From the NCBI GenBank assembly GCA_027083345.1, contig JALWOZ010000025.1:1-50085 (forward strand): a stretch of 50,085 nt of DNA, written 5' to 3'. Positions 2,832-29,689 of this stretch are shown here, in pieces (the first letter of the stretch is position 1; each line of letters opens with the position of its first letter). Position numbers and translations under genes: made by a program. The notes under the pieces were generated by a model. The model did not search any database and was not told the DNA's origin. It saw only the letters and a list, made by a program, of their open reading frames with translations. The DNA comes from Candidatus Kaiserbacteria bacterium (lineage in GTDB: Bacteria > Patescibacteriota > Minisyncoccia > Phycocordibacterales > UBA2100).

Positions 2832-3452
2832 ATGACAGAAGACACAACAAAAAAAGATAAGTCAACAATAGAGACTGATGGAGATGTAGCAGAGGTAATT
2901 GTTAAGGCCCCTCTAACAGATAATTCAGCTCCAAATGTTGAGGCTCCTAAACGTAAGCGTAATGAGTTTGGCTCTAAGAGAAGGTTTGAGAAAAATAAGC
3001 GTCGTGAGCGCCCAGAGAGGCGTCAAGAATTTGAGCAAAAGATAGTAGACATTAGACGAGTTGTTCGTGTTATGGGTGGAGGTCGTCGTTTTAGTTTTTC
3101 TGTTACGATGGTTATAGGAGATAAAAAGGGTAGAGTAGGAGTGGGTGTTGGCAAGAGTAATGATACTTCTTTAGCGATAGACAAAGCAACGAGAGATGCA
3201 AAAAAGCATATGATAACACTTAATTTAACAGAAGAGATGAGTATAGCCCACGATGTAAAGTCTAAATATGGTGCATCTGTGGTAGAAATTAGACCTGCTC
3301 CAGGTAAGGGGCTGGTGGCAGGAGCATCTGTAAGGAGTGTTTTAGAACTAGCCGGAGTAAAGGATGTTACTGCTAAGATTCTTTCAAGAAGCAAAAATAA
3401 GATAAATAATTCAAGAGCAACCATAGACGCTCTAAAGCAGTTAGAGAATTAA
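2832..3452 (+). CDS. rpsE: 30S ribosomal protein S5 with N-terminal extension
   Basis: RRVVRVMGGGRRFSF, GRVGVGVGK, PAPGKGLVAG. Confidence 0.98.
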   Translation: MTEDTTKKDKSTIETDGDVAEVIVKAPLTDNSAPNVEAPKRKRNEFGSKRRFEKNKRRERPERRQEFEQKIVDIRRVVRVMGGGRRFSFSVTMVIGDKKGRVGVGVGKSNDTSLAIDKATRDAKKHMITLNLTEEMSIAHDVKSKYGASVVEIRPAPGKGLVAGASVRSVLELAGVKDVTAKILSRSKNKINNSRATIDALKQLEN

Positions 3453-16616: not shown

Positions 16617-16786
16617 AATGGCGCTGAGTTTAACATAATGTTATACTCTATGCAATACAGTTAAAATATTAAAAGTTGAGGAAATAAATTATAAACCCGG
16701 GGCAGTGGGCGGCTAGGGATAGAGGGTCTATAATTTATTTGGGAGACTTTTATGGAGATATAAGAATTAGATAATATTTAAGAACA

Positions 16787-28476: not shown

Positions 28477-29307
28477 ATGGTGACTGAATACAATACAAAA
28501 CGGAGGGCTAAGTACGGGCAGAATTATATTAAGGACCCAAGTTTGGTGCGCAGGTTGTTAGACAAGACGACTGTGGTGGAAAGTGATGTTGTATTAGAGA
28601 TTGGGTCTGGTGAAGGGGCCTTCACCGGTGAGATACTTAGGCGCGCAGATAAGTTGGTAACCATAGAGATAGATAAGGAGAATGTAGAGCACTTGCAAGA
28701 CGCCTATACAGACGAGGTGCAAGCTAAGAAGCTAGAGATAATACACAAAGATGCATTAGAGTTTGAGTCGCGTTGGGCAAAGACGGAAATTAAGAATCAG
28801 GAGTATAAGATAGTCGCAAGTATACCGTATAGTATAAGCTCAGAGCTGTTTAAAAAGTTTTTACTTAAAAAACCGATGCCGAGCGAGGCGTGGTTTACTG
28901 TGCAGAAGGAGTTTGCCTTGCGCGCAATGGGTAAGAGCGAAAATGGACTGTTGTCTGTGTTATTAAATAGTTTTTATGATATGGAGATTGTGCATGAGTT
29001 TGCTCGTGAGGACTTCTCTCCCGTGCCTGGTGTTGACTCAGTATTCTTACAACTTACAGCGCGAGGTGATGTGTCAGAGCCTGTAGAGATGCACTTTGGT
29101 GAGTATAAAGACTTTGTGCGTGACGGCTTTACTCAGCCCATAAAGACTGTGCAAAAGCACTTTAAAAATATTATAAATCCAAACAAGTTGCAACAACTAG
29201 CAGATAAGCATAAATTTAAACTTAAAGAGCGCACAACAGAGCTCACGGCTTGCCAATGGCAAACGTTATTTATTGAATATATCGTATGGCAAAAGAGCAA
29301 GGCTTAG
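28477..29307 (+). CDS. rRNA adenine N6-dimethylase (Erm/KsgA family)
   Basis: YGQNYI, VLEIGSGEG, IEID, VASIPY, VQKEFA, FSPVPGVDS. Confidence 0.9.
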   Translation: MVTEYNTKRRAKYGQNYIKDPSLVRRLLDKTTVVESDVVLEIGSGEGAFTGEILRRADKLVTIEIDKENVEHLQDAYTDEVQAKKLEIIHKDALEFESRWAKTEIKNQEYKIVASIPYSISSELFKKFLLKKPMPSEAWFTVQKEFALRAMGKSENGLLSVLLNSFYDMEIVHEFAREDFSPVPGVDSVFLQLTARGDVSEPVEMHFGEYKDFVRDGFTQPIKTVQKHFKNIINPNKLQQLADKHKFKLKERTTELTACQWQTLFIEYIVWQKSKA

Positions 29308-29321
29308 CCTTGCTCTTTTGC
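29289..29321. terminator. Bidirectional terminator between the methylase gene and rnpB
   Basis: Perfect 15-bp stem GCAAAAGAGCAAGGC-TTA-GCCTTGCTCTTTTGC. Confidence 0.8.
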
Positions 29322-29325
29322 TGGT

Positions 29326-29624
29326 GCTTGTACTCATAAGCCGGATTCTGTTTTAATGGTCATTTACCTAGGGTAATTGTTACCAATTACCTCTTGCGAT
29401 TCTCCCCTCGACTAAGCTCGGGGCACGATCTTGCACACAGGTAAGGATTTTGCCGTTTCAGCCTAACTTAATAGGATCGTTTCTGTTCGCACCTCTATCC
29501 CTCGATTACTCTCGGGACGACGGGTATTACCCGCTACCATTTTAACCCTTTGACAAGCTCAGGGTATGTGTCCGGACTTTCCTCACCCTTCGACAAACTC
29601 AGGGCGCGACCAATCTGTACAAGC
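29326..29624 (-). ncRNA. rnpB: RNase P RNA (compact, about 300 nt)
   Basis: Minus strand has GAGGAAAGTCC, ACAGAAA, TGAAACGG and ACAGAATCCGGCTTA; P1 is GCTTGTAC/GTACAAGC; P18-like GGTAATTG-GTAA-CAATTACC. Confidence 0.93.
29404..29604. repeat. Four copies of a ~19-21 nt palindromic repeat, CCCT(T)YGA-N4-CTC(A)GGG-like, inside rnpB
   Basis: Copies at 29404-29423, 29498-29517, 29545-29565 and 29586-29604. Confidence 0.8.
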
Positions 29625-29689
29625 TATAATATAGTGCCTGTATCACATTGAATTGTCAATTCTATTAAGGTAAGATATTAATAATATTT

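Follow-up and report, generated by a model that had tools for sequence, protein, structure and literature searches.

Palindromic repeats that insert into genes are known from several groups of bacteria, and the repeat considered here is found four times within a single catalytic RNA. The DNA concerned is contig JALWOZ010000025.1 of the Candidatus Kaiserbacteria bacterium assembly GCA_027083345.1 (50,085 nucleotides, referred to as a whole as the window), and the gene is rnpB, which encodes the RNA subunit of ribonuclease P (RNase P). A first-pass annotation, made from the letters of the window, had noted that peripheral helices of this RNA are built from copies of one palindrome, and had offered two explanations: a mobile palindrome that targets stem-loops, or a recurrent RNA module that replaces lost domains. 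Most likely, the repeat is a mobile element at the DNA level, of the repetitive extragenic palindromic (REP) type, which is tolerated at the peripheral helices of the ribozyme and there caps or replaces the hairpins of the RNA.

Known palindromic repeats

Ogata and colleagues are said to have found Rickettsia palindromic elements (RPEs) in protein-coding as well as RNA genes. Vioque reportedly described, in 1997, short tandemly repeated repetitive (STRR) sequences inside the RNase P RNA genes of cyanobacteria.

Di Nocera, De Gregorio and Rocco (2013; PMC3733652) recognize two REP superfamilies, one of them CGTC-tagged. The latter includes RPE-6 (CGTC-1) and RPE-4 (CGTC-4) of Rickettsia as well as dRS3 of Neisseria. 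These CGTC REPs carry a CGTC, TGTC or CCTC tag, an 8-9-bp stem that begins A-T, T-A, a 4-5-nt loop and a 3-nt tail, and G-T pairs are frequent in them. They occur mostly as head-to-head dimers 3' of open reading frames (ORFs), have no associated transposase and are patchily distributed among species. "Many" of the intragenic copies are in replication and global-repair genes, tRNA synthetase genes being hosts too; the uvrB gene of R. conorii contains two single REPs, and uvrA genes contain dual inserts. Two other REP families prefer small GC palindromes as targets. RNA genes are not named as hosts in this paper, from which the terms RNase P, rnpB and tmRNA are absent. RPE-4, -6 and -7 share the sequence ATGAC, and a table gives their inserts as 68-192 bp (PMC3767692).

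A reduced RNase P RNA gene with four repeat hairpins

The rnpB gene of the window (Table 1) aligns in Infernal with positions 1-367 of the RF00010 model (92.6 bits, E 5.6e-29), and both of the conserved core stretches, GAGGAAAGUCCGG and ACAGAAUCCGGCUUA, are retained. It is a genuine class-A bacterial RNase P RNA gene, in reduced form. P12 is tiny, and the P13 and P14 segments of the model (19 and 23 positions) have shrunk to 3 and 1 nt, which bears out the earlier description of a minimal RNA without clear P13/P14. Because the P12-P14 region is reduced and the hairpins are non-consensus, the gene falls short of the Rfam gathering cut-off for RF00010 (100 bits), and a default gathering-score scan of the window did not report it. 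In such genomes rnpB will often escape standard annotation, insertions pushing its score under that cut-off. The genome of the window, G000, consists of 658,365 bases in 31 contigs, is 38.3% G+C and 98% complete. It encodes rnpA, whose presence had been left to be checked (PF00825 match at G000:C30:92164-92427, 51.1 bits).

Of the 305 nt of the RNA, 76 (25%) belong to four hairpins that follow a single design, CCC-(U)GAG-loop-CGA(A)-GGG. All the strings quoted in the first-pass annotation are present on the minus strand, and the alignment to RF00010 places them where it had put them: at P3, in an extra helix past the 5' strand of P4/P5, at P9 and in the P15 region. Each forms a hairpin in the minimum-free-energy structure of the full-length RNA. 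The hairpin is made of a CCC/GGG stem, usually followed by a U-A pair, then a symmetric 2x2 internal loop of G.A and A.G, a G-C pair and a loop of 4-6 nt. The copies are found only at the tips of helices, the core (P4, J3/4, P7-P8, P18, P1/P2) being untouched. In each of the four, the orientation is the one in which the RNA folds into the stabler, G.A-containing hairpin (-3.6 to -7.9 kcal/mol, versus -2.3 to -6.8 kcal/mol for the complement). A sister sub-type, CCC(C)GAG-loop-CGAGGG(G), is represented at P9, at P15 and at one intergenic site of the genome (G000:C8:71930-71948). The P9 copy probably originates from the repeat as well.

Table 1. Coordinates of rnpB, its repeat hairpins and the adjacent palindrome in the window
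Feature	Position	Strand	Basis
rnpB, reduced class-A RNase P RNA, 305 nt	29321..29625	-	RF00010 alignment, core stretches, rnpA elsewhere in genome
Copy 1, P3 hairpin	29586..29604	-	18/19 identical to genome consensus; aligned to P3
Copy 2, helix between P5 5' strand and P7 (J5/7)	29546..29564	-	18/19 identical to consensus; insertion relative to RF00010
Copy 3, repeat-like P9 lengthened by CCCG...AGGG around GUAA loop	29499..29516	-	Sub-type without U-A pair
Copy 4, P15-P17 hairpin, sub-type CCCCGAG-loop-CGAGGGG	29404..29423	-	RF00010 alignment and motif search
33-nt palindrome between upstream ORF end and rnpB 3' end	29288..29320		Sequence; only weak hairpin matches in the Infernal search

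Dispersed copies and in-frame insertions in protein genes

When up to two mismatches are allowed, the 19-nt consensus occurs eight times in the 658-kb genome and not once in any of 10 shuffles. The 13-nt apex, TGAGCTTGTCGAA, has five exact matches and four with one mismatch, one of these four being doubtful. Taken together, there are at least 12 dispersed copies. The unit comprises about 19-27 bp: a near-invariant 13-nt apex (UGAGCUUGUCGAA in RNA sense), the tandem G.A/A.G pair and a covarying stem of at least 3 bp. The three base pairs outside the apex vary in a compensating fashion among the copies of G000 (CCC/GGG, CTC/GAG, CCA/TGG). Those in genes are preceded by TGCC-, TGCT- or TCGCC-like prefixes, some copies of G000 have no such prefix, and no dimer of the unit was seen in this genome.

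The shortness of the motif alone might point to a chance likeness of GC-rich hairpins or to an assembly artefact. The probability of this is negligible, since chance is ruled out by the shuffle control (8 versus 0) and an artefact by the identity of contigs from two samples, and since the insertions in protein genes (see below) keep the reading frames. One contig of run X1, which is probably the source of the assembly, covers the whole stretch with zero differences. Two contigs of a second sample, X2, match positions 29280-29546 without differences, spanning the P15 and P9 copies; X2 coverage of rnpB ends there, 29547-29680 being uncovered. Contigs of an RNA run match only the conserved core of rnpB, at 90-95% likeness, indicating that they derive from other organisms and have no bearing on the expression of this gene.

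Long ORFs hold six copies: two are in uvrB, one each in uvrA, typA/bipA and valS, and the sixth is at the beginning of an ORF of 390 codons. Every one of them runs antisense to its host gene, and they share one frame, reading xSTSS or xSTGS. The motif is therefore not confined to rnpB, and the refuting condition set in the first-pass annotation fails on its second part, the absence of the motif from the rest of the genome; the search covered rRNA and tmRNA genes and intergenic DNA, and besides the copies in protein genes it found the one intergenic copy on contig C8. None of the matches falls in the 23S, 16S or tmRNA genes of G000. No Rfam family matched above its gathering score at nine loci of the genome. 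The sole related match, RF02901 (an Aggregatibacter sRNA whose consensus holds two inverted units), was dismissed at 43.5 bits versus a cut-off of 97.

Comparison with orthologues reveals how these copies arose. In typA, G000 has exactly 21 extra nt (PSTSSGR). None of the three same-genus orthologues (87-89% identical) contains them, nor do 10 of 11 orthologues from further afield; in the remaining one, that of G007, the position is occupied by an 18-nt insert of unrelated sequence. At both uvrB sites and at the uvrA site, G000 has extra codons relative to 8/8 aligned orthologues. Its valS has seven extra codons absent from 9/9 orthologues, including those of G002 (90% identity) and G003 (79%). 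The same-genus orthologues without these inserts are 84-90% identical (apart from the valS of G003). Thus, all five protein-gene sites tested are frame-preserving insertions of 5-9 codons without counterpart in same-genus orthologues. The other five genomes of the genus have zero to two exact apexes each, at other places. By these alignments, the five copies are recent, lineage-specific, frame-preserving insertions, and the unit is an insertional DNA element. This agrees with the earlier suggestion of a mobile palindrome resembling the Rickettsia RPEs: copies are dispersed in the genome, five out of five are in-frame insertions, and the REP-type family extends to many phyla (see below).

Insertions would survive only where the product tolerates them. 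With a near-absence of intergenic space, the tolerated sites would be loops at the surface of proteins and, in a ribozyme, the tips of its outer helices.

The adjacent repair genes uvrB and uvrA contain longer palindromic inserts too. One in uvrB (G000:C3, about 690-780) is in frame and 20-27 codons long; the other, in uvrA (about 3095-3190 of the same contig), is likewise in frame and adds about 34 codons (peptide VCEFCSAH...PPQNCTH). Both are absent from 8/8 aligned orthologues. Counting the three short repeats, the two genes hold five palindromic insertions.

RNase P RNA of related genomes

Of 41 related genomes, 37 yielded an rnpB gene, 224-509 nt in length. An RF00010 match above the cut-off is present in only 25 of the 41, the other 16 having a match below it or none. 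The gene was not found in G003, G005 and G007 and is cut by a contig end in G001.

G000 rnpB was aligned with that of eight relatives and compared helix by helix, as the first-pass annotation had envisaged. The motif is present at all four sites in G000 only. In the relatives, P3 is a plain short hairpin. The J5/7 site bears an unrelated short hairpin in six of the eight, none in G010 and a 107-nt insert in G004. P9 is a 3-4-bp helix with a four-base loop in relatives other than G002. At P15-P17 there is an unrelated 13-15-nt hairpin, and G002 has about 150 extra nt. The P9 of G002 is of the repeat type, 17/18 identical to that of G000 with the loop AUAA, and its P3 has the same CUGAG...CGAAG stem with a different loop. 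The loss of P12-P14 is also common to G000 and G002. The repeat forms of P3 and P9 are probably older than the split of the two genomes; those at J5/7 and P15 occur in G000 only.

Since relatives carry ordinary hairpins at these sites, the copies cap or replace existing helix tips and build no new domains. They do not sit in the lost P12-P14 region. Given these two facts, the second explanation of the first-pass annotation, a module that replaces lost domains, lacks support in the form in which it was put.

Related units are found in the rnpB of three of the five highest-copy genomes of the order. That of G137 has a two-unit insert, that of G276 a tagged unit in the P12 region, and in that of G257 P18 has the repeat's stem around a GUAA-type loop. 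Thus, rnpB is a recurrent host of the unit in this order (G002, G137, G276, G257).

It may be asked whether the hairpins, selfish in origin, are now kept because they stabilize a minimized RNase P RNA lacking P12-P14, as GC-rich struts or as modules for a tertiary contact or for protein binding. Such exaptation would fit with the loss of P12-P14 in G000 and G002, which both have repeat-type P3 and P9, and with the orientation of the four rnpB copies, although the energy differences between orientations are small. GC-rich hairpins could serve as struts in an AT-rich genome, and rnpB is strongly over-represented among the hosts, rRNA being without a copy. Moreover, GUAA-type loops on repeat-type stems occur at P9 (G000), P3 (G002) and P18 (G257), as if reshaped by selection. 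However, the AUAA loop of G002 P9 means that a GNRA contact is not conserved. Relatives do with ordinary short hairpins at all four sites, and the unit is also present in protein genes, where an RNA function is impossible. Exaptation is therefore unlikely. One form of it, a K-turn module bound by an L7Ae-family protein, was rejected: the hairpin has a symmetric 2x2 loop and no 3-nt K-turn bulge, and PF01248 was not found in the 98%-complete genome.

A related reading holds that a transposase-less hairpin repeat was co-opted as building material for the ribozyme, capping P3, the J5/7 helix, P9 and P15 after the loss of P12-P14 and, in relatives, P12, P18 and the 3' domain. This is improbable. 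If true, mobile DNA is reshaping the RNase P RNA of this order. The invariant 13-nt apex, common to small-genome uncultured bacteria, Proteobacteria, Bacteroidota, Verrucomicrobia, Chloroflexi and viral contigs, would then mark recognition by a widely conserved trans-acting factor.

Another insert was observed in the rnpB of some relatives. Those of G002 (L034), G137 (L396) and G276 (L399) have in common a short hairpin, TTGTCTGCC..GGCAGTT, to which the first two add a longer hairpin, CTCGATTTTG.AGCCACC...GGTGG.CAAAATCGG. The place of insertion varies: in G002 it is P15-P17, in G137 the vicinity of the 3' end. This hairpin module could be another mobile insert in RNase P RNA.

Spread and anatomy of the family

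Of 301 genomes sampled from the order of G000, 72 contain the exact 13-mer. It has 159 matches in this set, at most 10 in any one genome, versus 17 for a control in which the pattern was reversed. At 20 loci from three high-copy genomes, the 13-mer occurs in every frame and orientation as well as intergenically, and upstream conservation extends as cTTGyCC. A 17-mer was detected in at least 120 stretches of species-representative genomes and in at least 120 viral contigs. By label, the hosts among the genome matches listed include Sphingomonadales, Burkholderiales, Dehalococcoidia, Bacteroidota, Verrucomicrobia, Coxiellaceae, Actinobacteria, cyanobacteria and candidate phyla. By our own arithmetic, the whole genome collection should give about 70 matches by chance, so that single ones prove little; several contigs, however, hold two or three copies. 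Five genomes of other phyla, picked for multiple copies, have 10, 18, 19, 114 and 239 exact apexes versus 0-1 in the control. Megaplasmids of Methylobacterium, Novosphingobium, Sphingobium, Rhizobium and others carry the unit as well, for the most part where no feature is annotated.

This distribution bears on yet another possibility, namely that the hairpin is an RNA module native to rnpB, duplicated or gene-converted among its helices, and that rnpB was the source of the genomic copies. The presence of four copies in one 305-nt gene, with each of two sub-types represented there, would be accounted for in this way. Yet the apex attains 10-239 copies in genomes of other phyla and occurs in viral contigs, and the cross-phylum units are intergenic, with tags and a doublet architecture that rnpB lacks. 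Such abundance, tags and doublets make the family far older and wider than the rnpB of G000, and an rnpB origin is very improbable.

The anatomy of the unit was derived from 198 distinct copies, belonging to sub-families related by descent so that the counts are not independent. Flank pairs 1-3 are Watson-Crick in 88-95%, and in 96-98% when G.U is counted. At pair 3, which the query left free, C-G is found in 102 copies, T-A in 47, G-C in 25; G.U occurs there 16 times versus once for its mirror image, A.C. At pair 6 the corresponding numbers are 62 versus 2. The compensating pairs and the excess of G.U over A.C indicate that the hairpin is under constraint and strand-specific, as expected for an RNA or single-stranded DNA form. 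The loop of the main type is 5 nt. A TGTC, CCTC or CGTC tag is found in 61 of the 198 copies, four nt from the core in 34 and one nt from it in 27; the commonest prefix is GTTCG-CCC. The stem is 8 bp long and begins A-T in one sub-family (e.g., L130, L079), most copies having G-C or C-G at that pair. In G323 (Ferruginibacter) the units are intergenic, just past the ends of ORFs. Among the first 100 of the 114 places listed for this genome, there are 22 inverted doublets of the convergent kind, spaced by 34-116 nt, but not one divergent pair that is close.

Tandem forms exist as well. At L081:5200-5420 (a Dehalococcoidia metagenome-assembled genome, MAG), at least six 14-nt half-units stand in a row before one full unit, and half-units are also expanded in tandem at L104:5380-5520. 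At the start of a Verrucomicrobiae contig (G324:C1:1859-2353), seven units follow each other with a period of about 85 nt. At L082:415-431 (a Candidatus Staskawiczbacteria MAG), the unit abuts, on the other strand, the 3' end of an apparent tRNA gene, as far as the flanking letters tell.

Relation to described REPs

The unit is a REP-type repeat. Like other REPs, which measure 20-40 bp, it is a short palindrome, it has dispersed copies (at least 12 in G000 and up to 239 elsewhere), and its stem covaries in the set of 198. Its closest described relatives are the CGTC REPs; it is by their description, and not by the letters of the published consensus, that the two are likened. Like them, it is a short palindrome whose loop measures 4-5 nt and whose stem often contains G-T pairs; neither has a linked transposase, and both are patchily distributed. 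The head-to-head dimers and the location 3' of ORFs are matched by the units of G323. The copies described in uvrA, uvrB and tRNA synthetase genes have their counterparts in uvrB (two), uvrA and valS of G000. One sub-family matches the described layout in its TGTC/CCTC/CGTC tag, its 8-bp stem beginning A-T and its 5-nt loop, and has a short tail. Unlike CGTC REPs, fewer than a third of our copies are tagged, none of them in rnpB, and the host range extends to viral contigs and to a small-genome order that the paper does not cover. In addition, the tag and the stem bases next to it in many copies of the unit are together complementary to the ATGAC shared by RPE-4, -6 and -7.

REPIN-RAYT systems, which combine inverted REP doublets (REPINs) with a REP-associated tyrosine transposase (RAYT), offer a second comparison (Bertels and Rainey, 2011, and later work). 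Here too there are inverted doublets able to fold into a long hairpin (those of G323) and high copy numbers in some genomes. In contrast, the GTAG tag of that system is absent from the flanks of all 198 copies. The RAYT gene is described as flanked by REPs, and the systems as mostly vertically inherited, whereas our unit has one apex across phyla and no such linkage to a transposase gene (see below).

RPEs resemble the unit in being palindromes lodged in frame within essential genes of a reduced genome and tolerated in exposed loops. RPE-1 to -3 are far longer than the 19-27 bp seen here, and the present unit is not confined to one genus. The cyanobacterial STRR sequences are comparable in that genomic repeats occupy a peripheral rnpB helix without loss of function. 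They differ in being tandem heptamers in one helix, as opposed to four dispersed palindromic units in four helices.

No report of such repeats in rnpB was found in the literature, and none of the papers listed joins REP, REPIN or RAYT with candidate-phyla bacteria. A literature search with the repeat sequence and peptide strings gave nothing relevant, the one microbial match being a promoter table; figures or supplements may hold the consensus.

The kind of element is thus already known. What is new is that it occurs in this host lineage, that it decorates one ribozyme fourfold and that its apex is constant across phyla. REP/RPE-type intragenic repeats are extended to an order of uncultured small-genome bacteria, and the published, unexplained bias of such repeats for uvrA/uvrB recurs independently in a distant lineage. 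The locus offers a testable case of selfish palindromic DNA that entered a catalytic RNA four times and spared its core, thereby mapping the dispensable scaffolding of a minimal RNase P RNA. One 13-nt apex across phyla and viral contigs also sharpens the question of what mobilizes transposase-less REPs.

Possible mobilization of the unit and its concentration in rnpB

The unit might spread via a single-stranded hairpin intermediate, with an enzyme supplied in trans, although the indications are weak. Among the copies for which local transcription could be assessed, 11 of 12 are antisense to it, which hinted at a single-strand mechanism dependent on the replication fork. Such a replication-strand rule was considered and discarded: GC skew is strong, but the hairpin strand is the C-rich one at four loci and the G-rich one at three. 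No gene of the Y1_Tnp family (IS200/RAYT-type), the only transposase family examined, was found in G000, whose copies may therefore be immobile now. Across the 301 genomes of the order, a Y1 gene is present in 56 of 72 carriers of the unit versus 123 of 229 non-carriers (odds ratio 3.0).

Several observations sit uneasily with a mobile repeat that is simply tolerated. The association with Y1 is modest and rests on related genomes; none of 14 Y1-transposase loci has a unit within 1.5 kb, and no mobilizing enzyme has been identified. A RAYT is at most a weak possibility as mobilizer, given the weak association, the lack of adjacency and the absence of Y1 from G000. Within rnpB, the P9 and P15 copies have no U-A pair and have other loops, and P9 seems to keep its native loop inside an added stem, which a single simple insertion does not account for. 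The rnpB copies also lack a CGTC/TGTC-type tag. Finally, four of about 12 copies fall within 0.05% of the genome, rnpB, and none in 23S, 16S or tmRNA. Because of this clustering, pure neutral tolerance is insufficient as an explanation.

Two options can be considered for the concentration in rnpB. One is that the outer tips of its helices tolerate an extra stem, the observed orientation being the one with a stable RNA hairpin. The other, by analogy with the two REP families mentioned above, is that the element might prefer small GC palindromes as targets. The first-pass annotation had similarly proposed that the palindrome targets stem-loops. This is no more than plausible; the insertions in protein genes bring their own stem to sites that are free of a palindrome in the orthologues.

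Other features of the window and genome

The palindrome between the upstream ORF and the 3' end of rnpB (Table 1) is probably, from its sequence, a two-way terminator; a simple terminator scan did not call it, and a promoter scan found no promoter. Among the other RNA genes of G000, the 23S rRNA match (G000:C30:30877-34332) spans 3456 nt versus 2925 positions in the model, implying about 500 nt of insertions, whereas the 16S match (G000:C12:33546-34927) spans only 1382 nt versus 1533 positions; neither has a repeat inside. The small SRP RNA (signal recognition particle; RF00169) was not found in the 98%-complete genome; it may have diverged, or its gene may have escaped assembly.

Another family of dispersed repeats has seven copies, at 16675-16740 of the window and at G000:C9:2897, C28:32649, C29:15239, C30:38995, C30:59898 and C30:65377. 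A search of Rfam at E up to 1 gave no match to it. Its G-rich core, about 30 nt long (GGGGCAGTGGGCGG...), tips a long AT-rich hairpin whose stem varies by copy. The copy in the window folds at -24.7 kcal/mol (z = -3.6), and one copy is about 40 nt from the tmRNA gene. The centre of the longer uvrB and uvrA inserts resembles this G-rich core.

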